A stretch of DNA of 64,000 nucleotides from Botryllus schlosseri (GCA_051294905.1 CM119371.1:26166001-26230000); one strand, 5' to 3'. Counted from the stretch's first letter, positions 4,124 through 54,536 are shown. The notes: generated by a model from the letters alone, not told the origin. Translations and numbers: made by a program.

Positions 4124-5066
4124 CAGGGGTGGGCAGACCTGCTGCATGCACGAGCCGCACATCAAAAATTTAAGTTTAAAAAGAGCCACCACACCAAAAT
4201 ACGAATTTAGTACGTCACAATGAAATGTAGGCTTTCGAATGAGCTTTGTTATTGTGTGGTGACTGGTGATACGCTGGGTCTGAGACTGACGTGGCATCAA
4301 AGTCGTGCGGAGCAGTCGCTTTAGGTGCTGCTGAGTATTTTAGGATGATTTCAGCTCGGTGAATCTGTCTTAGTTGGGTAACTAGTGGAAAAGTTTTACT
4401 GTATGGTTTTGAAATGATGTTTCAAGTTAGTAGCTCTTTAATTATTGAGCGAATCTTCCTCATGTTCTGTTTTAGAAGTTACATTTTCCTGCTCATACTT
4501 TCTTTACTTGGAATTATTTCTTAACAACATTTTTTGTTGGTTATACTTTGTAGTTATTGCTAGTCTTTACAAAACAAATGGAAGAGTTATATTCACCAAT
4601 GTTAGCCCTCCAATAATTGTGACCTGCGCTGCTGTCATTATTTATCAAGTTCATTATTGTTGAACACGATGATTTATCATTGATTGAAGACCAATTGACC
4701 ATGCACCATTGTTGCTGGTGAAACGTTTATGTGAACTCAATTCGAGAGTTCTGTTGCAAAGTTCCAACCCTGTGGTGCACAATCTGCACAGTGCACGCTC
4801 CCCCAGATTTTACAAGTCAACCATGTTAACCAAGCCAACAATGTCAACCAAGCCAACAATGTCAACCAAGCCAACAATATGTCAACCAAGCCAACAATGT
4901 CAACCATAAAGAAATAAACAATAGGCATATTGTTAACATGTGATAGAACGCATCAGTTTATAATCAGTTTAAACTTCTTTAGCAAAATGGCGAAACACTT
5001 GTGCATTGTGCAACCATTAAAGAGCCACATTCAAAGGCTCAAAGTGCCGCAGTTTGCCCACCCCTG
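4124..5066. mobile_element. hAT (Charlie-type) MITE
   Basis: TIR CAGGGGTGGGCA...TGCCCACCCCTG. Degenerate TSD GCCTAGAT/GCCTTCAT. Confidence 0.7.
4816..4906. repeat. 18-bp minisatellite (GTCAACCAAGCCAACAAT, ~4 copies) inside the MITE
   Basis: Tandem repeats directly visible. They explain the repetitive TKPTMS ORF. Confidence 0.85.
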
Positions 5067-6988
5067 GCCTTCATTGTTTAAAAAGTGAATCAGTTGCAGT
5101 AAATCAGGTATATATACCTTCATGTTGTGTTGAAAATGATGATTTACATATTACTTAAGACGTTGTTAAACACTGTTTTATTTATGATGCGTATTGCACA
5201 CGCTGTAGTACTAATGTTTGGAATATTATGGAACTCTGATAGTCAACCTCAAGTCTCCCAGTAGGATTGATTGATGATTACGACTCATTTTGAAAGCGTT
5301 ATGGATTCTGGTGTATCTTCGAGTTGATCATATAATACTCTGCTATCTTGGTTCTAAAACTTACTCCTTGCTCTGCAGTACCATAGACCTCTATCTGTAT
5401 GAACAAGTCACTGCAATATACTCTGCTATGTGTGTGCATTAAACTGATATTTTCTAGTAGAGGTAGCCTACAGTTCAGAATTTCATCATGATCGACTTAT
5501 AGCCGCAAGTAATTGACATATGTTAACGAGAAATAGATACAAGTCTGTTGTCGCTTGCTTGTAGTTTTTTGCAAGTCTGTTGTTGTGACACGTCTTGCAA
5601 ATTGCTACTCTTACTTGTAATTGAGCGGAAAGAAATTTCAGGCATTTCAGGATTCATTTTTTTTTTAATATGGAAATGCCGCGACTTACCTTCAGTCAAT
5701 TCATGCACTAACTCGACTTCTACTCCAGTCATTGTGCATGACTCTACCATTGATATGACTCGAGATATATATCCGGCCAGAAGATGTATTTTATCTGTTT
5801 GAATAATCCTGTTAAAACAGTTGAGGACTTGAGTACCAGCGATGACTAGAAGTAACAATGGAAATTGATGACTTTTGAGTACAAGTAGAAGTAGGGATCC
5901 CGAAGTAAGTACTAAAGTACTCTAACAAACTGAAAACAGTGAAGTAGAAGTGGTCTAAATTCATAACCACTCAACTTAGCACTGCAAATGGACATAAACC
6001 AACTTGAGTATTTGACTAAGAGGTTTGTTTCATGTGCAAACATAGTAATGGCTGTAAAGATTATAAATGTATTTATGTATGTATGGAAAGACGCCTTGAG
6101 CTAGATGCCATATATTTTGAATATCCGCTCAATATATCGGAATTTTCAAACAAGTTATCTGTTTCGTTGTTATCGGCTCAAAAATTCGACACCATTCGGG
6201 CTCGGGCTATCTCCCTGTCTGAAAGTGAAAATGGTGTGAACAATTTTAGGAAGCTGCCATTATCCTCAGAAAGCCATTTTATTCAGACTGAGCTACAACA
6301 TCCTTCTGAGTGGTACTTTCCATTCTAGCTTATCGCTGTGGTGTCAAAGTCACGCATCATAACTTCTTAACCCTTTGTGACCGTACGCCAAATTGCAGTA
6401 ACTTGACCACCGTGCTTCGTTAGACACCTTTTTTCATAATATCGGCTGCCAACAAATCATTTAGCTGCAGTTTAAATACAGTGGCTTTCTGAGATAAACG
6501 TAACACTTCAAAAAAAATTTTCACACTGTAAATGGTGAGTGACCCCCCCCCCCCCATCATTAGATAGAGAGCAATGCCGTCTTAATAAAAATGAGCTCTG
6601 ATTTGATTTGAACCGAACTTAATTCAATTTCCAAGTTTTCAGTAAGTCTAATCTACTTTGAAAACAAAACTGTGTAGCTCTAATTCTAATTCTAGTCTAA
6701 TTTGCATAAAAACTGTGTAGGTCCATAATTATATCACGATTCACGCCAAATGGTAGCACGTGTTTCCCAGTTGTCCTTACTAAATCATGTTCTTTATGGT
6801 TAACTAGAACTACAACTACCGTAATTTTCCATGTATAATGCGCAAAATTTTACCGATTTTTTGCCCTAAAATAGGGGGGGGGGTGCGTATTATACATGGG
6901 TACAGGAAGCCTTGAAAAAAAATCCCTCGATCAAAAACTTGAAATCACACCTTTCTTCATGTTTGTTTAAATCGCGCATCACCTATAG

Positions 6989-7807
6989 CAGGGGTCGCGG
7001 GCCACTTTTCAAATTTCGTAGCGGCCGCAGGCCGCATGAATTCAAAATCGATACAAAGTAGGCAACCACGTTATAGAACTCTTCGTCAGTACAACGCTGT
7101 GCTACCTAACATGGACGATGGGTGTGGTATAGTGACCACAGAAGAAGTAATATTTTATTATTAAAGGAATACAAATACCACGAAGGATCACTGTCACCAA
7201 TTTCATGTTATTTTGAGCTCTGAGCTGTGCACGATACCTGGACACGCTTTTTGGGGCTAGCGAGATACGGTACTAGCGGAAAGACCATCTCCACGTAAAG
7301 CTTGATCTCGTGGTGAAGCCCTAAGCTAGTGTTTTTCAAACCTTTTTAGACATGCCCCCTTTATGATACTGAAAAATCACCCCCCCCCCCCTTATCGTCA
7401 TATCACAAAATGCATCCATAATGCTAACAATCCCAACGGATATTTTGATGGCATGGAAGGTTATGAATGTTGATGAGACAATTCTATAATATGAATTCCT
7501 GATTATACACAGAGCAACGTCTATAACTATGAACTGTAGGTAAATCACGCGGAGCGCGAAAAAATTTTCAGTTGGCCACAGCTCCGCGTTCTTCAGATGC
7601 TTTTACGCTCCCACAATGGGGGAGCGCACCCCAGTTTCTGAACCATTTCCCTAAGCCGTTTTCTAAGCGTCTCGGTCTTGCCAGTGTTTGAGCCATTGCG
7701 CGTCAATTTCAGCATTTCAAAATGTTTTCTTAGCTTTTTTCCGAAATCTCAAATCACGTCGGGGGCCGCAAAATATGACCTCGCGGGCCGCGTGTTGGTG
7801 ACCCCTG
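6989..7807. mobile_element. hAT MITE nested in 6819-8967
   Basis: CAGGGGTC...GACCCCTG termini. Perfect TSD ACCTATAG (6981-6988, 7808-7815). Confidence 0.85.
7327..7648 (-). mobile_element. ~300-bp hAT MITE (CAGTGGTTCTCAAAC family), nested in 6989-7807
   Basis: TSD CCCTAAGC (7319-7326, 7649-7656). Reverse-complement homology to 12795-13086, 36667-36933, 41356-41700 and 63580-63863. Confidence 0.75.
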
Positions 7808-8903: not shown

Positions 8904-9711
8904 ATATACACGTCATTTTAAGGGTGCGTATTATACATGGGGGCGCACTATATTCAAAAAATTACGGTACTCACTTTTTTCAAAATTCACAACTAGAACT
9001 AGAACTACTAAAATTACTAGTATGTCGACCGTCAATTTCATCAGACAGTGTAGGTGCACTTTTACCACTTAAGCTCCATATATTTTTAAGTTGATGGACG
9101 ATTTTTGCTGTAATTTGAGAAGTCCTCTTATTTCTTGATAGTGTTGCTATCTTGTGAAAGTTTTAACTGTTCAAAATTTGATATTCATATAATACAGAGG
9201 TACGCAATCTTTTTGCTATTCACAACCGCATTTCGATTATGTATGAAGCCAACCGCCGCATTCCAGGGCATAAGCAATAATGAACTAACTTGGCGCCAAA
9301 TACCCATGTTAAACTGCCATGTCCATTTCCGGTGAACTCCGGACTAATGTACTTTCTCATACCGGCTTACTACACGCACCGCAATCGCGAGCGGCCATGT
9401 TTTGGATAGTTACTGGTCTAACTAACGGCCGCGCGAAGCGCAAACATTTTTTCAAATTCACGAATGAATTTTGTCATTATTAGTAAATTCTCATATTACA
9501 ATCAAATATTCATCGTTTATCAGCTCATGTGATAGGATTCACTGGTGGAGTTGATGGAGGCAGTGTCTTCGGTAATTTAGGGCAAGTTATAAATGATGAT
9601 GCATCTTAGGATGGACCAATTGTTATTGGTGACATTGCTACAAGCTGCTATTTGTTCCCCCCCCCCCCATCAGGATTGTCGGTAGGCCATAGTGCAGTGG
9701 TTTGGAACCCA

Positions 9712-10524
9712 CAATGCTCCCTCTAAGCTGAGCACGTGCGCTAGGGCTGTTCAAAAATAACTTTTTTTCCTGAATCTTGCTGGTTACTTGATTAAATCGT
9801 TAGGTTGCCTTAAAAAACGACGCATACCAAATTTGAATTCATTCCGACAAATATTCGCGGGTTACGTAGAGCTTGAAAATTTTGGATTTGCCCGAAAACG
9901 CAAAAAAAAAATTTTCTCAAATTTTTTTGCCAACCCCATGAAATTGTTGGGCTGTCTTCAAAAAGTATGCAAAACAAATTTGACTCAATTCCAAGCTGTA
10001 GAACCGGAGTTATTCCAGTTTTTCGGTGATAATTCTTGGATTATCCACCAATCAAGGATTATCCCAGAATTATCGAATAAAAGCTGAAATAACTCCGGTT
10101 CTACAGCTTGGAATTGAGTCAAATTTGTTTTGCATAGTTTTTGAAGACAGCCCAACAATTTCATGGGGTTGGCAAAAAAATTTGAGAAAATTTTTTTTTT
10201 GCGTTTTTGGGCAAATCCAAAATTTTCAAACTCTACGTAACCCGCGAATATTTGTCGGAATGAATTCAAATTTGGTATGCGTCGTTTTTTAAGGCAACCT
10301 AACGATTTAATCAAGTAACCAGCAAGATTCAGGAAAAAAAGTTATTTTTGAACAGCCCTAACGTGCGCACTGCTGACACGGTCTCTGCGCACAGAAAATC
10401 TAAGTAGCGCACAACAAATCCGAAGTAATGACCTTTTTTTTAGTCGTTACGCACTGTTGTCCAAGAGTCTGCGCAGTGAGTTGGTGAGTGTTCGCAGTCT
10501 CGTCAAAGATTAAAGGGAACATTG
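9712..10524 (+). mobile_element. ~200-bp MITE (CAATGTTCCCTCTAAG family) split by the 9742 palindrome
   Basis: Homologous to 30298-30494. TIR CAATGCTCCCTCTAA...TTAAAGGGAACATTG. Confidence 0.8.
9742..10360. mobile_element. 619-bp near-perfect palindromic hAT-type MITE
   Basis: TAGGGCTGTTCAAAAATAAC arms of ~280 bp with only a few mismatches. Perfect TSD ACGTGCGC (9734-9741, 10361-10368). Confidence 0.95.
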
Positions 10525-10938
10525 CTCGCGAGCCATATATGGCTCTTTTGGGTATAAGATATGGCTCTGTCAAATTTTTAATTTTGTACTTAATTTAGCT
10601 ATATTGCAGCAAATTGTTAGTAAATTTTCATGGTGGCGAGAATAATTATTCTCATGGCAGCACAAACATTTCTTTGATAGGTCAAGACAGTGGGGTTTGT
10701 ATGCCGGGTTAGGGGCTCGCACCGCCCTCTTTCAAAATCTCATAATTTAAGTTGATGTCGCACGGGCGACTAATACCACTCGCTAATTCGGTCCACCAAC
10801 CACCACGCGCCTAGCAAGCTTGGATTGCACGATACCTTCATTGACGAAAGAGAATAGCGGACATGGCGACACTGCTACAATGCAGTTCTCAAATACACAA
10901 TGTCTTCCTGATCTACACGGAGAAATGAAAGGCCTTAA

Positions 10939-12386
10939 CCGAATGGCAACGGCTACAATTTTAGAAAAATTTTACTTCAATTTTCAAAATCGAAAAACTG
11001 TGCTTTAATGGGATTGGAGCCCGGTAAACAAGGTAGCGTTCGATTCAGAATTTCAACGCGGATCCGATTGCGCCACTCAAATCATTTCGAGCTCTGTGTC
11101 TGGCCACTTATATCAAGAGCAAGCCGTGAAAACGTTGGTTGGAAACAGAAATGCTAAATTGCGGACCTTATGAACCTTAGTATAGGTATTCGACGACCAT
11201 ACAGTCTGGTGTATTGTATAGGCTCAGAATTCATCGTTCTAGAGAGCCCTGAGTCGACGGTCTACGTCAAGCAGGCGCGAATTTCTAATCAAAACAATGC
11301 CGACCGTTTTAGTCAGCTCGCGGCAGACCGCAGACAGAGTGAGTCATGGCGCGTGATTCGCGCGCGCGTATGGTAACTTCGAAGGCTTATAACTCTAACT
11401 GTTGTGACCCTATATTAGTCATTTTAGTGTTCGTAGACGGATATTTACAGTCCATAATGATACCATAATACCATAATTATTTACTGCAAATGCTTATCAT
11501 TACTACAACGTAAGATATATATCGATGTACGACAGCTCTTTGTATACCCAGACGCACGCTTTTGCGTAGGTATAATCGCTGAGTAATATTGTATGTATTC
11601 CGAATTATACTTTACTATTAGCCGTTATTTAGAATCATATAGACAACAACAATTCACAGACACAATCTATGAAGGTGTATGCCTATTAGAACACGATATA
11701 TTTCACGTTATGTGACGGGTATTCAGCCATGTGCTTGAGGCGGGTACGGTAGTCTGACGGAATTCGCTTCCCGGTTTTCAAATGAAACCTTGAGCGGTAT
11801 AGAACTAACTAGTATAGTTGCTTTAGCACAATATAAACAGAAACTGACAATCGCTATTCATAGCAACAAACTACAGCTGGTTATGACGAATAAAACCAAC
11901 TAAACGACAGTGTATATGGCGGGTATGAGGAACGCGCGTGTCTGCGAAATGATGCTTCGACGGATATTTTTGTCACGCGGCCTATCACATAGCCTTTGAT
12001 CAGCTTAGATGTAGCTAATATCAGATATGAAGATATGTGTGGACTTGTATGGACACTAGCTATTGACATAATGAAACAACTATGCCCGAAGGCGGCTAGA
12101 ACGAAACATACAGAACGTTATCTGAGAGTGGTCAATGACGCGCGAATTGCCGACACAGTGCATTTTGCAACATAATTATCTACGGTGTTTGATATACGAT
12201 TTTGACGTCTTCGATATAATAAATATCAAATAACAAGGTATCAATGAACTTGTACGAACAATATCTATTCACAGAAATGAACAACAACGACCTAGCACGA
12301 TTAATATGTAATATATCGTGGTTTCAATTACGGCACCCTTCTCTCGTACCGGCATGTCGAAAAATAGACACGCCGGTGCGAAACGG
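10939..12386. mobile_element. Putative piggyBac-type non-autonomous element
   Basis: TTAA on both sides (10935-10938, 12387-12390). Imperfect TIR CCGAATGGCAACGGC / CCGTTTCGCACCGGC. It interrupts the 9695 element. Confidence 0.55.
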
Positions 12387-12654
12387 TTAAAAGTGACATT
12401 CACAATTACAAATTCAAATTAAAAACAACGCTATACCTACGTATCATTTTTCTTGTTGGTTGTTACAGCTGAGTGTGTAACACAACGTCACGTTACACCG
12501 AATATTTTAGGAGTCCATTAATACTTAGATTTTCAGAATCAGTGCGACAATTGCATTAGATTACTATCAGTGATTATAAATTCTAAGCTATTTACAATGA
12601 GCTGCGTTGTCACAGGTGAGGCTTGGCCCGTCTGTGCCTCATCTGAGTCTTACC

Positions 12655-13684
12655 CAGGGGTGGGCAAACTACGGCCCGCAAGAGTCTACAAATTTTTTTT
12701 TTTTAAATTGATAAAATGTGTATACTAAAAATCGAAATAATGCAGGGACTTGATTAACTTTTTCTTAGTATATTTTACCATGGAAATTCTGAGACAGTGG
12801 TTCTCAAACTGGTGGGCGCGTCTCCCTTGGGGGCGTGAAAGCATCTGAAGGGGGGGCGCGAAGCTGAGCTCAACTGAAAAAATTTTTATTCCAATTAATT
12901 CCAATTCAAAGTTATTGCTCTGTATTTAGTCTCTCACCCACAGTCGTAACCTTCCACGCCATCAAACTACCCCTTGGGTTTGCTAGCATCCTGGTCGCGT
13001 TTTGTGATATGACGATACGGGGACACAAAATCTTTCATCAACATAAGGGGGGAGGGGGCTTGTCCTAAAAAGTTTGAGAAACACTGATCTAAGGTAAATA
13101 GCCTACTTAATATCACAGCGGGATAGCTGCAACGAGATTGACATAATTTGGATCACGAGTGGGATTCCAGATTGGCCACTCAATTTTTAATTATTTCAAT
13201 GTTGTGCTTATAAAAACGGCGTGTCTTAGGTAGATTCATTGTCTGAATGCGTAGAATTGGGGTATTAAAATTTTATCTACACACAGTACAAGCGTGTTTG
13301 AAGCTAACATGGTTATGATGCTGTCAGAATTGTGTGTCCTGAAACTGAACCAAAAGTGGACAAAACGCTGCTCACAGATTTAACTTTCAATCCTGTTCTA
13401 ACAATCGGGCCAACCGACTTTCATCTCCATACTTTTGATAAATTGGTTATTGAGGTCCGCTAGCCTGAAATCTCGTCACTATATGCTTCTGACGCGTGTA
13501 CGATATCATCAAAGCAGTGTTTGGCTTGTTTTAAATAAGCACATATATTATCTCCATGTCCTCACTATATAATCAAATTTCAATATTGCGTTTTGGTTTA
13601 TAATCCCAATTTTACATAGTGCGGCCCGCGAATGGATTCAGATGTTGAATGCGGCCCGCGAGTTCAACAGTTTGCCAACCCCTG
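12655..13684. mobile_element. hAT (Charlie-type) MITE nested in 9695-14088
   Basis: CAGGGGTGGGCAAACT...AGTTTGCCAACCCCTG. Perfect TSD GTCTTACC. Confidence 0.9.
12795..13086 (+). mobile_element. ~300-bp hAT MITE (CAGTGGTTCTCAAAC family) nested in 12655-13684
   Basis: TIR CAGTGGTTCTCAAACT...AGTTTGAGAAACACTG. Five family copies in this window. Confidence 0.8.
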
Positions 13685-14762
13685 GTCTTACCTCTCCTTT
13701 CGCGCTTTATTTTCGAACAATAAATATGAAAATTCCCGTGATTTTGGGAATAAAAATGTTCAGAATCTAGTCATTCATAAACATCATTAGAACATACCAG
13801 GAACCATTGATTGGTTCACAATTTTCCTTCACTCGTCCCTGAAGACATCTCAGGCACTGCCTCACTTGCCTCCCATAACCCCACGTCACTGACGTAGCAC
13901 ACGGTGGGTATGTACTGCTGGTGTGACTATGGCCATGTTTGGCTCTACATACGGATATGCTGCCAATACGCGTCACGGGTGTTCAATTGTGACGTAACAT
14001 CTGATTGACATGTATGGCTCGTTGGGAGTTACAATTGAAAATATTGGACTAATATGGCCCTTCGGTCAGAAAAGGTTCCCGACCATTGCTGTAGTGGATA
14101 TATATTGGAATCGCCTAAAGGTAACAGAAACAAATCTATTTTGTGAGAAGCAGACGATTCCAAGTTGGTATATCTATATGAGCCGCATCATTTTCCCCTG
14201 CTGTTCGCATCTGCACTGTGGGCCTCAGATTGCAAAGGACGATACTGAATTAAAATCGAAAAATGAAGCACCCCACTGAACCGCGCGCGCGGAGAGAAAA
14301 TTGCAAGATTAATTGAAATCTCTAAAAAACTCGGGAGGGAATTCGTAAATTCAATTTGCCTGTCGACGCCCGCGACCACATATTAATTAATATCCGTGCC
14401 ACGGCCGCACAAACTGTCATCTACGGCCGCAGGTTGCCCACCCCTGATATAATATAATCCTGTTGTTGAGATCCGACTGAATCTAACAGTAACAATATTA
14501 CACAAGACAATGATATTCAGACTATCAGTGGTGCATTCATATCATTTCATTGATATTTTTGAATGTTGCACGATATACTGTAATCACAAATGCGCTATTC
14601 ACAATCTAATGTAATTTGTTTAGATTAGGTATGTAGGCTACTTCAATACATATATAAATTTGTTCCTAAAAGTTTGAACTTGAAGAATTGTATTCGGATT
14701 TTGTCCCCGCTTTCATAGTTAAAAGCCATCCTTGAACCTTTGATTATCACTTCCACAATAAG

Positions 14763-15998
14763 ATGGAAAAGCGCCCGTGTGATGTATCAATGAAACCGTT
14801 TTCTCGAAGAAATCGTGAATGTTATATATCAGGAAATCCATTCACTCATGAGAGAAACCTCAAGCGTCACATGGATATGCATGTCATCGTCAAACATCAT
14901 GAATGTGATATTTGTGGAAAATCATTCACTCAAAAGTCTCACCTCGAGGCACATATGGATATACATGCTGGCGTTAAAAAATATGAATGTATTATATGCG
15001 GCAAAACATTTACGGCAAAGGGAAGTCTTAAGCGTCATATGGACGTGCACGTGCATGCTGGCATCAAAAAGCATGAATGTACATGTACTATATGTGGAAG
15101 AGCATTCGCGTGTAAGTCTGCCTTCACCGTTCATTGGGATACACATGTTGGCAAGAAGAATCATCAATGTTGTATATGTGGTAGAGCATTCACTCGGAAG
15201 GGTCACCTCGAGAGCCATATTGATGTGCATGCTGGCATCAAAAATCATGAATGTGATATATGTGGAAGAGCATTCACTCGGATGAGACACCTCAAGCAAC
15301 ATTTGGATATGCATGGTGGCGTCAAAAATTATAAATGTGATATATGTGGAAAAGCATGTGCCCAGAAGGAGAATCTGAAGCGTCATATGGAAGTGCATGC
15401 TGGCATTAAAAATCATAAATGTGATATCTGTGGGAGAGCATTCGCTCAGAAGATTGAGCTCAAGCGTCATTTTGATGTGCATGCTGGCATCAAACGTCAT
15501 GAATGTGATATATGTGGAAAAGCATTCTCTCACAAGGGTTACCTCAAGCATCATGTGAATATGCATGCTGGCATCAAAAGTCTTGAATGTGATATATGCG
15601 GAAAAGCATTCAATCAAAAGCAGAAACTCAGGTATCATGTGGATATGCATGCTGGCATCAAACGATTTGAATGTGATATATGTGGAGTAGCATTCATTCA
15701 GAAGGATGAACTCCGGTATCATATGGATCTACATGCTGACATCCAAAATTATGAATGTGATATATGTGGAAAGGCATTCACTCGGAAGGGTACCCTCAAG
15801 CATCATGTGGATATGCATGCTGACATCAAAAATTATGAATGTGATATATGTGGAAAGGCATTCACTCGGAAGGGTACCCTCAAGCATCATGTGGACATGC
15901 ATGTTGACCAGTGGCGTAGACAGGGGGGGATAATCGGTGTCCGATACCCCCCGTTTCCAAGCTCGAAATACCCCCCGTCTTACGTATATTTCCATTGA
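14763..15998 (+). CDS. Tandem C2H2 zinc-finger protein (1 degenerate + 12 intact fingers); last ~29 aa come from an inserted transposon
   Basis: 411-aa ORF with a 28-aa / 84-bp period C-x2-C-x12-H-x3-H. The linker is HAGIKxxEC rather than the usual HTGEKPY. The ORF reads into the hAT element at 15909 and stops inside it. Confidence 0.9.
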   Translation: MEKRPCDVSMKPFSRRNRECYISGNPFTHERNLKRHMDMHVIVKHHECDICGKSFTQKSHLEAHMDIHAGVKKYECIICGKTFTAKGSLKRHMDVHVHAGIKKHECTCTICGRAFACKSAFTVHWDTHVGKKNHQCCICGRAFTRKGHLESHIDVHAGIKNHECDICGRAFTRMRHLKQHLDMHGGVKNYKCDICGKACAQKENLKRHMEVHAGIKNHKCDICGRAFAQKIELKRHFDVHAGIKRHECDICGKAFSHKGYLKHHVNMHAGIKSLECDICGKAFNQKQKLRYHVDMHAGIKRFECDICGVAFIQKDELRYHMDLHADIQNYECDICGKAFTRKGTLKHHVDMHADIKNYECDICGKAFTRKGTLKHHVDMHVDQWRRQGGIIGVRYPPFPSSKYPPSYVYFH

Positions 15999-17379
15999 TC
16001 TAATATTTCTTGTTCTAATTCGATAATCCCCAATTGCCGCGCGGCATCATCACGCCATCGATCAATCAGACAATGCATTGCGGTGATGCCTTTTTCTCAT
16101 ATTGTTCTCTCGTCTACGGAAGCCCGAAAAACGCCTCTCACACGGCTCTCCCGTCTCATCTGAACGATATTATCCAGTTACAGAACCAGAAGTCACAGTA
16201 ACAATAACACTCGCATTGAAATTTCGATACCGCGCGAGTTGGTTTTCGTGTTTGACAGTCTATTGTCAACAAACGTTTAGGACATGCGCGCTAGGCTTGA
16301 ATCATTAGAGATAGCAGATCCCTACAGTACCAAAACAGATCGTACTAATCAAATGTTCTGTATGGAATCTATTATGTATTGATCCAATTTGCGATCATTT
16401 AGTTCGGTTGTTGTGTGTGGGTTTCCAGATCTCCAGCCGTTTCGTGTCTCAGGCCTCTGGCGCATCTGCTGACTGTCCTATCATAACGCGCTTGGCTAGT
16501 AGTAAAACATTGGAGGCTAGGAAAATTAGGCCGCTCTGCGACTCGCGGCGCGTGATAGTGCTACTCGATGTGCTATTGTAATAACCAGAAGTTATAGTCT
16601 TGGCCTCGACAATTCGCAATTGTCACTTCTACACCGCAAACGCGTTTAGGAATGCATTTTGATCGCGAGCCTAAGCCTGCGCCAGGCCACTGTTATTCAC
16701 GTGATGCAAGCACAAGCTCGAGCGGTAATTAGTCTTTACCATTTCCACACACCATCTTGGCAGACAGTAAAAATCATATTGATTTAAAACAAAATTAAAC
16801 CAGAATTGTTTGTATCAAACGGCAACCGACTATAATTCATTTGCGTATCTTCACTGTTCGAGTGTTCGTCTTTGAGCGCAAAATGGAGAGATCTTCCACT
16901 GTGTTGTAATATGATCTGCGCGCACTTTCGTGATTATATCCTCGCTTTGGTAATTAAGGTCAAGATACCTCGCTACCATCGAAATTTGTTTGCTACTTCC
17001 ATCTGATCTGATACATTGTGATTTGCGAGGTGATCATCGATCACCTGCTGCGTTGAGTCATGATTCGAGCGCGCTTTGTATCAAAATCCGCGCGCATGAA
17101 ACTCGCTGTCGGCAAATAGTGGCGCGCAAGGGAAAAGCGCCTTCTGTTTGTTACTGTAGCATGCGACTGCGCATAATAGAGCTATATTTTAAGATAACTG
17201 GCAAATGTTCATGTGTATAAAGACGTAAACACAAACTAGATTATCTTAACCCTCGTTGTATCGGCATTTGTGTGTATTAAACCGCAATAAAGTGGTTAGC
17301 ATAACGAATATCATCTTTTCAAAAAATATCCCCCGTATTAATAAATATCCCCCGTTTTTTTCGGCTGGCTACGCCCCTG
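15909..17379. mobile_element. hAT-type non-autonomous element inserted in the zinc-finger array
   Basis: TIR CAGTGGCGTAG...CTACGCCCCTG. Perfect TSD ATGTTGAC (15901-15908, 17380-17387). Zinc-finger codons resume in frame after the TSD. Confidence 0.95.
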
Positions 17380-17387
17380 ATGTTGAC

Positions 17388-17996
17388 ATCAAAAATTATG
17401 AATGTGATATATGTGGAAAGGCATTCAATCGGAAGGGTAACCTCAAGCATCATGTGGATATGCATATTAGGGTTGTCCATAATTTAGAAAATCTTTAAAA
17501 TGCTCCGCTGTAATGTCTTGTTCTATAGATTATTAACAAAAAACAACAATGGGCCAGAAAGAAGCACACAGGAAAGCGTTTGAAAGTAGCTGCCAAAGAA
17601 TGGGCTTTCCTGTGTGCTTATTTTTGGCCCATTGTTGTTTTTTTGTCAATAATCTATAGAATAAGACATTACCACGGAGCAGTTGTAAGATTTTCCAAAT
17701 TATGGACAACCCTAATGCATATGCATGCTGGCATCAAAAGTCCTCAATGTGATATATGTGGAAAAGCATTTAATCAGAAGGATAAACTCAATATCATAAG
17801 GATCTGCATGCTGACATCAAACAATCACATATGTGGTATATGCGGGAAATGACCAGAAATGGGATCTCAAGCTTCATATGGAGATGCTTGTGCAATGTTC
17901 ATGGAGGTATCAAGAGTCCTAATTGAGATTACTGTGGGAACTCATTTGTTCATAAACCTACCCTCAAGCGTCGTATTGATATGCATCCAGGCGTCG
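17388..17996 (+). pseudogene. Disconnected 3' part of the zinc-finger array: one intact finger, then ~3 decayed fingers
   Basis: IKNYECDICGKAFNRKGNLKHHVDMH at 17388-17465. After the second MITE comes HAGIKSPQCDICGKAFNQKDKL, then a frameshift, CGICGK*, and GGIKSPN*DYCGNSFVHKPTLKRRIDMH. Confidence 0.85.
17468..17714. mobile_element. 247-bp palindromic hAT-type MITE inserted in the zinc-finger array
   Basis: TAGGGTTGTCCATAATTT...AAATTATGGACAACCCTA, with imperfect arms of ~110 bp. Perfect TSD ATGCATAT (17460-17467, 17715-17722). Confidence 0.95.
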
Positions 17997-18363
17997 TATG
18001 TTCGTAAGAAATAGTCTCGTGTCTTTGATCAAGTGTCATTTGTGGTGTCTGGAAATGCATTTTCTCGAATTAATTCTATATGCTCATTTCGGTTAAATAA
18101 TAATATCAGAAAACCAGAAGATTTTTATTAATATGTAGTATTCTTTCAAGACAGCTACAAATGCAATGTTCATTGAGGTTATAACAAGCACTGTTCAACT
18201 CCGCCGATACGCATTCGTACAATCATAGGTGCCGACTTACCAGGTGGCGGCCACCTCCTACGAAATGCCCAAACGCCCAAGTGATTTGTGACCAGTAGTT
18301 AGTAAGCAGGCGGATCGATGCGACCTCGTCAGAGACGTCTTCGATTTCGATACGCGCTTGTGC

Positions 18364-19328
18364 CAGGCGCGTAGCCACGGTGGTTTCGGGGGTCGAACTT
18401 CCCTATTTGAAACACGAAACCCTGTCATTTTAAAATGACCATTCTAAGTCTAATATTCAATTGCAATTCAATAATTGTGTTATCAGTGTTTCGCGCGGCT
18501 GATTTGCGAGAAACGTGTTGGCAATTAGCGAGAAGGGTCAGTGATGATCTCCCTCTGAGATGGTCGCGAAATTAGGTCATTCATTCGCGTGCGCGTGGCA
18601 ATCGTCGCTAGTCTGCTTTATCGCGTCTCGAACAAGCCTGGTACCCCAGGCTTGAACAATCACATCTGCAATAGGCTCAGTTCACATTATATCATGGCTT
18701 GCCTGCGCAATCGCATCTTCATTGGCGGCTTCGGCCTGGTGTGAACGATATCATCGCTGGCCTACACGATAGCATCTGCAACAGGCCTGGTGTGAAATAT
18801 ATCATTGCTGGCCCAACTATCAGGTCCTATCTCTCGCTGGTTTGGAGACAATGTGATCGAGTGTACGCTAATTAGTGATTGTTTTATGTCATATTGATTA
18901 ACAAGCGACATCGCATAACTGAATAACATCGAATCGCTACAAACAGACTTTAACGTGCGTAATTGATTCCCACAAATACTTGAACGTAACGATCAGAAGA
19001 TGTGTATCACTGTATCATGGCTTGAGTTCTGAAAGACGACAAAGGTATGAAATCGGTGCCATCAAGTTTGGACATTTTGATTTGCGAAAACTGTCGCCGA
19101 GACTGCGTAATACGTGCGGTATTTAATTGTTCACCGGAGATCAGGGACTCGCTAATTGACAGCACTCCCCGACGCTTTGGCAAGCTTATCATAGGCCTAA
19201 AATCGCCAATACGAGAGATTATATGATCGCCAAAAACACTTGTACTTAGCCCGAATTGAATTGATGCTATTTGGTAAATTTGAAAAAATCCAAATCCCTC
19301 CCCAATTTTCCGACCGGCTACGCACCTA
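18364..19328. mobile_element. hAT-type MITE
   Basis: CAGGCGCGTAGCC...GGCTACGCACCTA. TSD GCTTGTGC/GCGTGTGC (7/8). Confidence 0.75.
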
Positions 19329-20420
19329 GCGTGTGCTGAGAAGCAGCATCCTAGATCTTCTTTCCCGATCGGGACCCCAAATATACGTTCTGCTGTTCTG
19401 AAATCTAAATTATGTGGGCCCATATTCGTTTACAAAACCATTGGTGAGCTGGCTAGCTTCGTCTTGGTAATCGGAGCGCGAAATTGGAGGGTGTGTTGGT
19501 GTGTGCCTGCAAATTGGAATTCATTTCTGCGCAGATCCGTTTCTCTAACAAGGCTTTGCCAGTGACATTATTTGGGCAATGCAGCAATGAAAACAATTGT
19601 CGCGACGAAAGCTATTCAATACTGTGTCAGGCTCAAAATCCTCTTGACTTGATCAACCAACGTATCTTGCAATCCAAGATTACGCAGTGCACGATGCCGA
19701 GTACATCAAATTCGCTAGGGATATTGGTCGCTGGCACTACAGCAACTTAAAATTGAGGATTTTGTTACGGCGTCCGAGCCCATAACCCAGTATACGCCGC
19801 TTCCTTCACCTCTCAAATACATTTTTATGCTGCCAGGTGATTAATTATTCTGGCCGTAATAAATTTTACTAACAAGTTGCTGCAATATCGATAAAATTCA
19901 GTACAAAATTAAAAATGTGTCAAAGAGCCATATCTTATTCCACAGTTGGCTACAGTGAACACTCTTAGACTAAAGTATCCAAACGGTTTCATAAGATATT
20001 CAGTTGACGTCCCTTCATCACTGCTAATACGGTTGACTCATTTATGTACATTCTACATAGATTTGAGAACATTTTCTATATGCATATATATTTATTCGTT
20101 GGAGGTTCCCACATCATAATCAAGGCAACTGGTTCCAATAAATCGTGTGAAGCGCGGAAAAAAATTTCAAGATAAGTAAAATCCGCCCTAAAAGACTCTG
20201 TTTTATGTTGATTTATGAAATAATTTTGGATCGCCAAGGAGCTTTGTACATTTTGAAAAGTTCTGTTTCACTTTTTGCAAAAACACGGTCTCAATTTGTC
20301 GTTTGTGTGAAATGTTTTGGCGTGTCATGAAATATCATCTCGCGTGCCACAAATGTGCCTGAGTTTGCCGACCCCTGCTGTGGATCATACCACTATACGC
20401 TATCTCGCCACACATATAGC

Positions 20421-41700: not shown

Positions 41701-43080
41701 CTGTATGACAATGCTGTTCTCAAATCCACATTCTCTTCGTCGTTATCGGCGATAAATTGATTTGAAATAACATTGCCTCGTTAAAATACCTTCATTAAAT
41801 ACAATTTATTCCTTGTATATGTGAATAAATGGGCAAATAATGTATCGATTCAACAATCCGGCCCGCCAAGTATAATTTTCCTATATCCGGCCCTCCGACT
41901 GGAGAAGTTGCCCGTCCCTGCTATACGGTATAGGCTATAGTAGACAAAAAGTGCGATGCCTGTTTCGCGTGTGGCTGCGTCGGCAAGATGATTGTGATCA
42001 GACTGACTCACAGCCACAACAGTTTAGGTGTTGTGCGATGTTTTACGTCGGTTATGATTCTGTCAGATTCTGCCTACCTGATGAATCAGCGCTAGTAATC
42101 ACAGGACTACCTGTTATTTACATATTGTGCGCCATATAGCAAATGAGAACCTAGTTTGGGTGTTGAAGGCTGGTAGTATTGCTTATTCTTGCAATAACAT
42201 TTCCTTTTGATCTACTATGTGTTCGGAATCATTAGTACATTGATGCATGCATTTTCACTGCATAACGTTTTGGGGCTGTCTTTTCAACCTTACTTCATTT
42301 GTAGAAATATATATATATACTATATGATCCGTTCCTATACTTAAAAAAAACAATACACCTGATACCGTTTTTATACAGGTTGGTACGCCACTAATTTTCA
42401 CCACCAATCACCATGTTACGTCACGTCTATCGCTGTTCGCTCTCTCGAAAGAGCTGTTCGCTTACGACTTTACAGGTTTGGCTTAGGCTATGTTCATCGT
42501 GACAATACATGCGCCATGTGCATACAATACACCCGATACTTTTTTAACCGGTTGGTACGCTGCTAATTTTCACCACCATGTTACGTCACGTCTATCGCTG
42601 TTCGCTCTCTCGAAAGGGCCGTTCGCTTTCGACTTTACAGGTTTTGTCAAGGCTATGTTCTTTGTGACTATATACTTGCGATGTGCATTCTGCATACAAT
42701 ACACCCGACATCTTTGTTCACTGGTTGGTACGCTGCTAATTTTCACCACCATGTAACGTTACGTCTATCGCTGTTCGCTCTCTCGAAAGGGCTTTTCGCT
42801 TACGACTTTACAGGTTTGGTTAAGGCTATGTTCATCGTGACAATACATGTGTGATGTGCAATGCACCCGATACCCTTTTTACCGGTTGATACGCTGCTAA
42901 TTTTCACCACCATATTACGTCACGTCTATGGCTGTTCGCTCTCTCGAAAGGGCTCTTCGCTTACGACTTTACAGGTTTGGTTACGGCTATGTTCTTTGTG
43001 ACAATATATGTGCGATGTGCATACAATACACCCGATACCGTGTTTTTACCGGTTGGTACGCTGCTAATTTTCCCCACCAG

Positions 43081-51029: not shown

Positions 51030-51798
51030 TCCTACTTCAACCACCTGCGTTTTATGGCGTAACAATAGACTAATACGATGTAGGCTACTATTATATCGTA
51101 GCAATGCCGCATTTTTTCATGCAGCGCTGCACTGCAGATTGAAACTCATTATGAAACGGCGGGCCGTATTCTTGTGATAACTAATTATTATGTCGCGGGC
51201 CGGACGATTTCGCTTGGCGGGCCGGATCCGGCCCGCGGGCCGTAGGTTGCCGACCCTTGGCTTACGACTTTACAGGTTTGGTTTAGGCTATGCTCATTGC
51301 GACAATACATGTGCGATGTGCATACAATACATCCGATACCGTTTTATACCGGTTGGTACGCTTCTAATTTTCACCACCATGTTACGTCACGTTCTATCGC
51401 TGTTCGCTCTCTGGAAAGGGCTGTAGTGTTCGGTTACGACTTTACAGGTTAGGTTTAGGCTATGTTATTTGTGACAATATATGTGCGATGTGCATACAAT
51501 ACACCCGATACCGTTTTATACCGGTTGGCACGCTGCTAATTTTCACCACCATGTTACGTCACATATATCACTGTTCGCTCTCTTGAAAGGGCTGTTAGCG
51601 TACGACTTCACATGTTTGGTTTAGGCTATGTTCTTTGTGACAATATATGTGCGATGTGCATACAATACACCCGATACCTTTGTTTACTGGTTGGTACGCT
51701 GCTAATTTTCACAACCATGTTACGTCACGTTCTATCGCTGTTCGCTCTCTCGAAAGGGCTGTAGTGTTCGGTTACGACTTTACAGGTTAGGTTTAGGC

Positions 51799-53014
51799 CA
51801 GTGGTTCCCAACCTTTTTCGACTCATCGCCCCCTTCTCAAGCTCCACTCCGATCATCGCCCCCCAAATATTGGGAACCGATAAATTGGCATACAAACTGT
51901 AATCTCTGGTCATTTGACTGAAAAAATGTCATTTCTCCCCCAAAAACGTTAGTCTTGGTCCCCCATATGGCGATAAACCAAACTTCTGGGGGGCTTCGTC
52001 CCTCAGACCCCTCCCCTGATACCACTTTACCGCTACTCCTAAGCAAAAATTGTTGGACTCTTTAGTTAGTCGGCTTAATTTGCGTGAAGCGTGAAAAATG
52101 TCTGTCATTCATGATTGAATCGGTCAATATGATCGGGAAATGCATATATATTGCTGTCAATTTTTTATCCTCTCTCTGTCATGTATTCGGATTTACCGGT
52201 AGAGCTGAGTGAGGCGTCTTGGAAAATGTAGGGCCCAGAAATAATAATTAAATATATTCGGGCGGACCCTTGGGTATAATGACTTCGTTATACGTGATGG
52301 CATTTCGTGGCATTTCTGCTATGTCAAAATAATATTCAAATCGCCCATACGTACTGAACTAAAAGACGCACACGATTTAAAATTAGTATTTCTGCACTGG
52401 CAATTAATTTTTCTCTATGGGGTGGCATTTGTCTTGTGGGGTTCAGATTGCCAGGACAGGGACATTTGGCGCCAGCCATTTATGCGCCTATGGACAATTA
52501 AACATATATGTATATCGTATATATATCGAAGTCGGTCAGCATAAAGGCTGTCCTTTTCCGCCAAGGTTTTCACGTTTTGGCACACTTCTCGGAGTCGCAT
52601 GTTATATGGCCTGAATTTTCATATGTCTTGCTGCGTCATGTTGTGGCAATGGCTGACGCCGTGATGCTCATTTCTATAACTCATGCTTATCATTTCTTGG
52701 GGGAAGGGTATCCAGTAAGCGAGAACTCTGGCCGCATTAAATCGCGCAAAGCGCGAAATTTTTTTGAAAAAGTTGCATATATTTCCAAAATAATACTCTC
52801 CAATTCAGGTTTATTCATGCAAAAATTTTGGGCCCCCTTCGAGTTCGGGTCCCCCATTCCAATCGGGGTTTGGAGCGCGACAGTTACGGTCCTAGACTCC
52901 AATATAGACGTTTTAACGCGTCATCGCCCCCTTCGTCCGTTTTCGCCCACCTATCGCCCCCTTCGCTATTTTCGCCCCCCTGGACCGCCTAATCGCCCAC
53001 GTTGGGAACCACTG
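51799..53014 (+). mobile_element. Composite hAT MITE (CAGTGGTTCCCAAC ends, body related to 43081-44038)
   Basis: TIR CAGTGGTTCCCAAC. Perfect TSD GTTTAGGC. Confidence 0.9.
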
Positions 53015-53837
53015 GTTTAGGCTATATGTTCTTTGTGCCAATATATGTGCGATGTGCATACGATACACCCGATACCGTTTTATTCCGGTTGACACGCTGC
53101 TAATTTTCACCGCCATGTTACGTCACATATATCACTGTTCGCTCTCTTGAAAGGGCTGCTCGCGTACGACTTTACATGTTTGGTTTAGGCTATGTTCTTT
53201 GTGACAATATACGTGCGATGTGCATACAATACACCCGACTATGTTTTTTACCGGTCGGTACGCTGCTAATTTTCACCACCATGTTACGTCACGTATATCA
53301 CTGTTCGCTCTCTTGAAAGCGCTGTTCGCTTACGACTTTACAGGTTTGGTTTAGGCTATGTTATTTGTGACAATATACGTGCGATCTGCATACAATACAC
53401 CCGATACCTTGTTTACTGGTTGGTACGCTGCTAATTTTCACAACCATGTTACGTCACGTTCGATCGCTGTTCGCTCTCTCGAAAGGGCTGTAGTGTTCGG
53501 TTACGACTTTACAGGTTAGGTTTAGGCTATGTTCTTTGTGACAATATATGTGCGATGTGCATACAATACACCCGATACCGTTTTATACCGGTTGGTACGT
53601 TGCTAATTTTCACAACCATGTTACGTCACGTTCTATCGCTGTTCTCTCTCTCAAAAGGGCTGTTCAGTTACGACTTCACAGGTTAGGTTTAGGCTATGAT
53701 CTTCGTGACAATATACGTGCAATGTGCATACAAAGATACAATACACCCGATACCGGTTGGTACGCTGCTAATTTTAACCAGCATGTTACGTCACGTCCAT
53801 CCCTGTTCGTTCTCTCGAAAGGGCTGTTCGCTTGCGA

Positions 53838-54536
53838 CAGGGCCGGCCAACTCGTGGCCCGCGAGAAGGTTTTGAGTGGCCCGCGAGGTCATTTCCGAAA
53901 TTTCTAATATCAAAAATGGATTGCACAGATTGTGAACTTGCAAGGCCAACCAAAAATTTGACTAGTTTGGCCGCAACACTTGAGATGTGATGACTAAAAT
54001 ATCAGTTCCGACGCATTGACAGATCCATCAGCCAGTCACATATTGGTATATCTTCGTACACTACAATTAAGCAGAATAATTTGCGATAGATTTATCAAAA
54101 GTAAAAATTTTCTGCAAGCTTAGCGCAACATGTTGTCACTCGATTCCTTGTTTTTAATATTGTTGCCCTTTTTGTGAAAACGGTAGAACGCCTGATGTAT
54201 CAGATTGAGTCTAACTATACTCGCGATTACGGGACAAAGTGTTGTTCAACATATGCGACTTTGCGTTTGCGCTCGCAGTAAGATCGTTGACTATGAAACC
54301 TAGGCACGGAAATATTGACGCATGTTGGTCGCAGTTTTCGATATCGATATGTCCATGCGCCGAATAGCCCTCGCAAACTTAGCCCAGCGATATACAGCAG
54401 GCCCGCAATATTGTCAAGTGACAATATTATTGACCTATGAACTTCAAAATTTTTTCGCGCTTCGCGCGGTAAGTGGCCCGCGCAGTATTTCGTCAATCGA
54501 ATGTGGCCCTTTGGCTGAAAAGGTTGGCCGGCCCTG
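53838..54536. mobile_element. hAT (Charlie-type) MITE
   Basis: CAGGGCCGGCCAAC...GTTGGCCGGCCCTG. TSD GCTTGCGA/GCTTACGA. Relatives at ~32840-33666 and from ~62676. Confidence 0.9.

Follow-up and report, generated by a model that had tools for sequence, protein, structure and literature searches.

Two hAT-like insertions in the 3' end of a tandem zinc-finger array of Botryllus schlosseri

C2H2 zinc-finger arrays that have lost their 3' end are known from human ZNF252, for which a published account (PMC2865497) describes a truncated array, complete and degenerate fingers in the 3' UTR, and fingers gained and lost by duplication and deletion. The locus described here resembles ZNF252 in these respects. 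Compared with ZNF252-type genes, its stops come from DNA transposons, an effector domain (KRAB or other) was not found, and its linker is HAGIK-like instead of TGEKP. The zebrafish FiNZ-ZNF genes (PMC10547256) are similar in their conserved ligands, variable base-contacting residues and transposon-rich genome, and the work on them treats conserved ligands with variable contact residues as usual in fast-evolving zinc-finger families. That work concerns zinc-finger proteins that bind and repress transposons, whereas here insertions may alter finger number. hAT elements are defined by an 8-bp TSD, a short TIR and their size; a target of nnnTAnnn is given for Buster elements (PMC3517528) and nTnnnnAn for Hermes and Ac-type elements (PMC10368747).

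We analyzed a 64,000-nt stretch of the B. schlosseri genome (GCA_051294905.1 CM119371.1:26166001-26230000), hereafter the window. An earlier note on this DNA had proposed that a zinc-finger gene was trimmed stepwise from its 3' end by two hAT insertions at the same finger boundary, that each product kept only whole fingers, and that transposons are thus editors of finger number and of DNA-binding specificity.

The array and the two inserted elements

The array consists of 84-bp units joined by a HAGIK-like linker, and C-x2-C-x12-H-x3-H units are repeated 12 times in one frame, which places it among tandem C2H2 arrays. In register, F0 is followed by F1-F12 on the 5' side of the first element (E1), F13 between the two elements, and F14-F16 past the second (E2); coordinates are collected in Table 1. 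No second zinc-finger array was found within the 64-kb window. The open frame matches Pfam zf-C2H2 in 11 stretches (E 1.6e-69), zinc-finger families being its only Pfam matches of note, and it contains no KRAB-, SCAN-, ZAD- or BTB-type N-terminal effector domain; an upstream exon may exist. Protein searches retrieved generic zinc fingers and no close relative: the best identity was 52% among the best 120 of 253 matches, 41% among the 150 matches listed in a further search, and 46% among the best 120 of 331 in another. None of 17 short candidates was a close relative, and HAGIK-like linkers numbered two at most in each of 270 proteins compared.

Table 1. Features of the locus, in window coordinates
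Coordinates	Strand	Feature
14763..15998	+	Open frame of 411 codons: short leader, F0, F1-F12 and a 29-residue E1-derived tail; 14763 is the putative start
14820..14882	+	F0, degenerate finger at the 5' edge of the array, second Cys lost
15043..15054	+	Exact tandem duplication of 6 bp in F2 (phase 55), giving two extra residues at the last His; either a footprint or slippage
15077..15088	+	Exact tandem duplication of 6 bp, linker/first Cys of F3
15741..15908	+	F11 and F12, linkers included; tandem copies of recent origin
15901..15908	+	Left TSD of E1, 8 bp, phase 61, fits nTnnnnAn; identical copy at 17380-17387
15909..17379	.	E1, non-autonomous hAT-like element, 1471 bp
17388..17465	+	F13, intact finger stranded between E1 and E2
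17460..17467	+	Left TSD of E2, 8 bp, phase 57, purine-pyrimidine alternating, fits nTnnnnAn; identical copy at 17715-17722
17468..17714	.	E2, fold-back hAT-like MITE, 247 bp, TAGGG ends, high copy
17723..17995	+	F14-F16, decayed fingers
17844..18074	+	One-orientation pile-up of X21 reads over sequence that is near-single-copy in X5

Both insertions described in the earlier note were found, with TIRs and identical 8-bp TSDs, and its account of the reading frame is borne out. Once E1 and E2 are taken out, each with one TSD, the frame is continuous; each element supplies a nearby in-frame stop (15996-15998 in E1, 17496-17498 in E2); and F13 keeps all four zinc ligands, while the three fingers past E2 are frameshifted, stopped or changed from His to Arg. 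The damage to F14-F16 comprises a -1 near 17791, a +1 at 17822, a 5-nt loss at 17849-17854 (aligned as -4 and -1), a +13 at 17887-17899, a Cys-to-stop change at 17924-17926 and a His-to-Arg change at 17972-17974.

The terminal arms of E1 are 15 nt long and 87% complementary (an imperfect TIR), with two subterminal repeats of 13 nt at each end. E2 has arms of 78 nt (90%) and 40 nt (95%), with perfect termini of 18 nt inside the long arms and a fold z of -23. The longest internal frame of E1 or E2 has 88 codons, from a frame scan independent of Pfam. Both elements have 8-bp TSDs, short TIRs and lengths under 4 kb, and are multi-copy and non-coding, and both TSDs fit nTnnnnAn, as do 8.8% of the 8-mers in the window (one copy per family is compared here, so that this fit is not a family consensus). 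They thus resemble the non-autonomous hAT elements and MITEs of the sources quoted above, a likeness known from ends and TSDs and not through a transposase. E2 departs from a typical hAT element in being a full fold-back, and its type seems to favor targets of alternating purines and pyrimidines. A second 8-bp repeat surrounds E2 (17458/17719); taking it as the TSD gives a plain 84-nt unit but requires extra letters beyond the TAGGG ends, and this boundary was rejected. With the boundary used here, the empty E2 site is an 84-nt unit plus 6 nt, the extra 6-bp duplication beginning at phase 55.

Four of the 24 listed sequencing runs were compared with the locus (X5, X6, X21 and X23). The even depth of X5 on unique pieces (56-83) suggests that it is genomic DNA, and its word depth, a rough measure and not a copy count, is about 4,500-7,600 on E1 and at least 20,000 in the bins of E2, far above the unique pieces, so that both elements belong to multi-copy families. 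Pattern scans retrieved no copies of the E2 ends from viral or metagenome collections, and zinc-finger and element patterns had no match in the viral and metagenome contigs scanned. No Rfam match was found in 12000-20000.

E1 carries AATAAA at 17286 and 17340. No convincing in-frame donor and acceptor pair able to splice out E1 was found, either computed or by eye, and among the 15 of 139 joints listed there was neither a splice joint at the locus nor a joint skipping E1 or E2; all listed joints have a depth of at least 145, above single-copy, so they permit no inference on empty alleles. Letters of E1 that are private to the window are absent from the X5 and X6 contigs, and this was rejected as evidence for an empty allele, since contigs lose rare variants. 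The last 43 codons of E1 are open in frame with F13, as part of an 82-codon frame at 17250-17498 that ends in E2; no good splice acceptor for it was seen. Upstream of the array, the region 14379-14660 is a possible upstream exon or 5' UTR: seven sense reads of X21 lie at 14460-14499, and an X6 contig ceases to match at 14639, beside an AG at 14635-14636.

Transcription and the order of events

X21 is a single-cell RNA run (about 3% sampled), X23 a bulk RNA run (about 6%) and X6 a run of unspecified type. Over the pile-up listed in Table 1 the depth of X21 is 13.2 in one orientation, which is sense given the usual library rule, and 0 in the other (23 reads, 15 starts at 17996). The stretch 17541-19300 is free of A-rich priming sites, which makes a genuine mRNA 3' end just past F16 likely, and the end is probably just downstream of the pile-up; weak signal-like hexamers are found at 18095-18104. 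Transcripts of at least one individual, which may or may not carry the insertions, therefore end downstream of both insertion sites. X23 has very low depth, mostly sense in the open frame and almost nothing on the tail, and 169 of its 170 reads aligned only partly, 9 of them continuing into another gene. X6 contigs cover 14639-15267, 15540-15699 and 17823-18109. A silent gene, which the earlier note had named as fatal to its proposal, is not what these reads indicate.

Fingers were gained as well as lost. F11 and F12 with their linkers differ at 3 of 84 bases, and F13 differs from either at 3 of 78; by these counts F11-F13 are a young triplication, and finger number has risen as well as fallen. 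Their divergence is about 1.9% per copy, which places the gain of two fingers at about the time when E1 arrived: in the listed pieces E1 differs from its family majority at 7 of 436 positions (X5) and 10 of 759 (X6), or about 1.3-1.6%, and among the unique pieces listed the pairwise distance between alleles and the window is about 1.5-1.7%. Between the arms of E2 there are 10 mismatches and one indel in about 110 pairs, which sets an upper limit of about 4.5%. At the indel rate of E1, 0.9-1.9 indels would be expected in the tail, and the probability of at least four is 0.015-0.12. This excess suggests that the decay of the tail probably predates E1, which fits an order in which E2 came first.

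A second allele bears on how much each element removed. The X6 contig at 17823-18109 has six substitutions, none at the F16 stop or at the His-to-Arg codon, and five gap letters, which implies that its allele has the same F16 stop, His-to-Arg change and +13. It exceeds the corresponding part of the window by five letters, the size of the 5-nt loss in F15, although their location within the contig is not given. With the F15-F16 lesions common to another allele, E2 removed at most F14, and it removed no finger if the frameshift of F14 itself came first. E1 removed F13 from the protein, provided that E1 is not spliced out. The fingers lost are thus at most two, one of them a near-copy of its neighbors. 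Of the stepwise trimming that had been proposed, an E2-first order and the removal of F13 by an unspliced E1 fit these data; the triplication of F11-F13, which added fingers, runs the other way. At 17823 the same contig matches rightwards and has 35 unlike letters leftwards, and its allele may differ at the F14/F15 linker.

The shared phase and target preference

Phase was taken as the position in the 84-bp unit, counted from the first Cys codon. The TSDs of E1 and E2 lie within about 4 bp of the same phase, as had been noted (61 and 57), and without any target preference two insertions would agree this closely with a probability of 0.107. Under target classes (nTnnnnAn, RTnnnnAY or alternating purine-pyrimidine) the same agreement has P 0.149-0.458, and under a matrix built by pooling the TSDs of the 16 other elements in the window P 0.136. 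A single cut leaves whole fingers with a probability of 0.26 if sites are uniform, 0.40, 0.44 or 0.68 under the classes, and 0.256 under the pooled matrix. For both cuts the products are about 0.07 without preference and 0.16-0.30 under the class models, an overall range by target model of about 0.07-0.30, so this result is not significant under any model. Two insertions in a 1.5-kb array have a probability of 0.06-0.11 at the element density of the window. Element density was derived by searching the window for inverted repeats that end in CAG/TAG and are flanked by 8-bp duplications, which gave 19 candidates, namely E1, E2, 16 others and one at 9195-14446 that was left out of the count for its weak arms and for ends that are part of other elements.

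Several observations point to the codons around the last His as favored targets. In F0-F13, 30 of 44 RYRYRYRY 8-mers and 17 of 39 RTnnnnAY 8-mers start at phases 55-67. RYRYRYRY TSDs occur in two of the three other TAGGG-ended elements of the window, against a window background of 0.006; we would note that this alternating class was picked after E2 was seen and rests on those three elements. Other copies of E2, with flanks outside the window, match 9-10 letters into this TSD and flank (14 reads of X21, one contig of X6). The pooled matrix, which mixes families, ranks the target site of E1 21st of 1194, in line with target preference. Against preference, it ranks that of E2 only 372nd, and whole-finger cuts are not in excess under it, at the same value as for uniform sites. 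With two events, preference, chance and selection cannot be separated. The suggestion that the shared phase and the nearby stops reflect selection for whole fingers finds no support here. Over the 12 frames of E1 and E2 the first stop comes after 0-59 codons (median 8; 29 and 9 in the frames used), early stops are expected in any frame, and their proximity is uninformative. Target preference, which by the earlier note would undo its proposal if it explained the phases fully, explains them in part, from a small sample of TSDs.

Readings of the locus

We lean towards a tolerated 3' truncation of a transcribed 12-finger gene, with the shared phase resulting from target preference plus chance. On this account the locus would be a tandem C2H2 gene specific to its lineage that is still transcribed and very probably still yields a 12-finger protein, in which two independent hAT MITE insertions struck a dispensable 3' end. 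The shared phase would follow from the periodicity of the array and from its Asp-Met-His-Ala codons, which offer the best 8-bp targets for these elements, the remainder being chance. The tail F15-F16, and perhaps F14, would already have been dead or been severed by E2; unit duplication would then have given F11-F13; and E1 would finally have severed F13, a near-copy of F11/F12. The outcome would be a nearly neutral truncation with dead fingers in the 3' UTR and no selected editing of specificity.

Small insertions in the array suggest an extension of this account with which it agrees, and which we regard as less likely than not: that hAT elements hit the Asp-x-His codons repeatedly, insertion truncating the array and excision leaving +6 (a gain of two linker residues), while purifying selection retains in-frame outcomes in the live part. 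Three small insertions lie at the same Asp-x-His codons as the elements (+6 in F2, +13 in F15 and, where E2 entered F13, another +6), and two more lie elsewhere in the array: F3 has a +6 at its first Cys, and one linker of the tail has a +1. Five of the seven insertion-type events fall at phases 55-67, with P 0.0014 if uniform and 0.14-0.60 under the class models, the range of phases having been picked post hoc. The two +6 duplications at His sites each begin at phase 55 and correspond to a pair of 8-bp TSDs less 2 nt, and the element at 9742 has a TSD whose first six letters are identical to the F2 duplication. As read from the letters, this +6 pattern could have been left by hAT excision joined on microhomology. 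Excision footprints that stay in frame and add residues are known in maize proteins. Short deletions and microhomology are frequent in Ac/Ds footprints (PMC5873905), and partial TSD retention combined with them would yield +6 duplications; in a rice study real footprints are mostly messier, 8 of 94 being perfect (PMC4423477). The likeness to Ac/Ds is limited in that the donor element is not seen at the F2 or F15 sites, no allele in which the F2 site is occupied was observed, and slippage at short palindromes produces identical six-base duplications. Slippage, or the purging of insertions elsewhere in live fingers, which alone would bias the phase, also explains the insertions. It is doubtful, though conceivable, that the last-His and linker codons of this zinc-finger family are generally a periodic hAT target, at which insertion truncates arrays at finger boundaries and excision extends linkers by two residues, and that DNA transposons thus supply, throughout the family, phase-locked variation in finger number and linker length on which selection can act.

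That the insertions were kept for leaving whole fingers and retuning DNA binding, transposons thereby editing finger number, seems to us very unlikely. The last His does survive both cuts, with the probability of about 0.07 without preference given above, the gene is transcribed, and contact positions vary freely; F13 departs from F11 in helix positions -2 and 3, and its loss may alter binding, given that contact position 3 differs from F11/F12. Set against this are the lack of significance under every target model, E2 having cost F14 at most, and the likely small selective difference from a mid-finger cut, which would lose the same finger, E1 adding 29 foreign residues. F13 is a near-copy of F11, only 2 of 63 core bases being different, and the phase is best ascribed to preference and chance; the role of transposons as editors of specificity is unsupported. 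It is also rather improbable that the locus is a young transcribed pseudogene which lost its function around the time of the insertions and whose 5' frame has not yet been struck. Consistent with such decay are the degenerate F0, a Phe-to-Cys change in F6, the two tolerated +6 duplications, the mostly non-synonymous differences among F11-F13 (by eye), an allele diversity of about 2% in the F0-F5 part of the open frame, and the missing effector domain and close relative. Allele differences in the open frame are 10/452, 13/629, 1/193 and 2/160, overall not below the flanks. What speaks against a pseudogene is the integrity of the 5' part, which seems alive: F0-F13 have no frameshift or stop in 1,169 bp, compared with 4-5 indels, one stop and the loss of a His in 273 bp of tail (P 0.001-0.0002 if lesions were uniform), F1-F12 retain all 48 of their ligand residues, and none of the four listed allele pieces over the open frame has a gap. 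Uncorrected pN/pS among F1-F12 is 0.05 at ligand and core positions, 1.18 at contact positions and 0.73 elsewhere, values that compare related units in non-independent pairs and reflect old, not current, selection.

Read as a tolerated truncation, the locus is another zinc-finger array without its tail, here by DNA transposons. If the repeated use of Asp-x-His codons held family-wide, a coding repeat would steer transposons to domain boundaries, and there would be a mutational route besides unequal crossing-over for finger number and spacing. Phase-locked transposon insertion in zinc-finger arrays was not found reported in the literature covered, which mostly excludes subscription journals.

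The 16 other elements of the window, with CAG/TAG-ended inverted repeats and 8-bp duplications, lie between 6989 and 59107, and three groups can be told apart among their TSDs (nnnTAnnn-like, RYnnnnAY-like, and alternating purine-pyrimidine), which seemingly track TIR type. A 965-bp element with E1-like ends (GCGTAGCC core) and one mismatch in its TSD is found at 18364-19328, 370 bp beyond the array. At 12655-13684 a 1030-bp hAT-like element with a nested insert lies inside a repeat, and X5 joints there skip about 1040-1050 letters, which means that the host repeat also exists in copies without the element. Tandem repeat arrays with units of 161-172 bp occur at 42350-43079, 51262-51798 and 53013-53838, the last two divided by a 1216-bp hAT-like element (51799-53014), and inverted arrays of a 22-23-bp G-rich unit with TTAGGG-like motifs are present at 559-1280.
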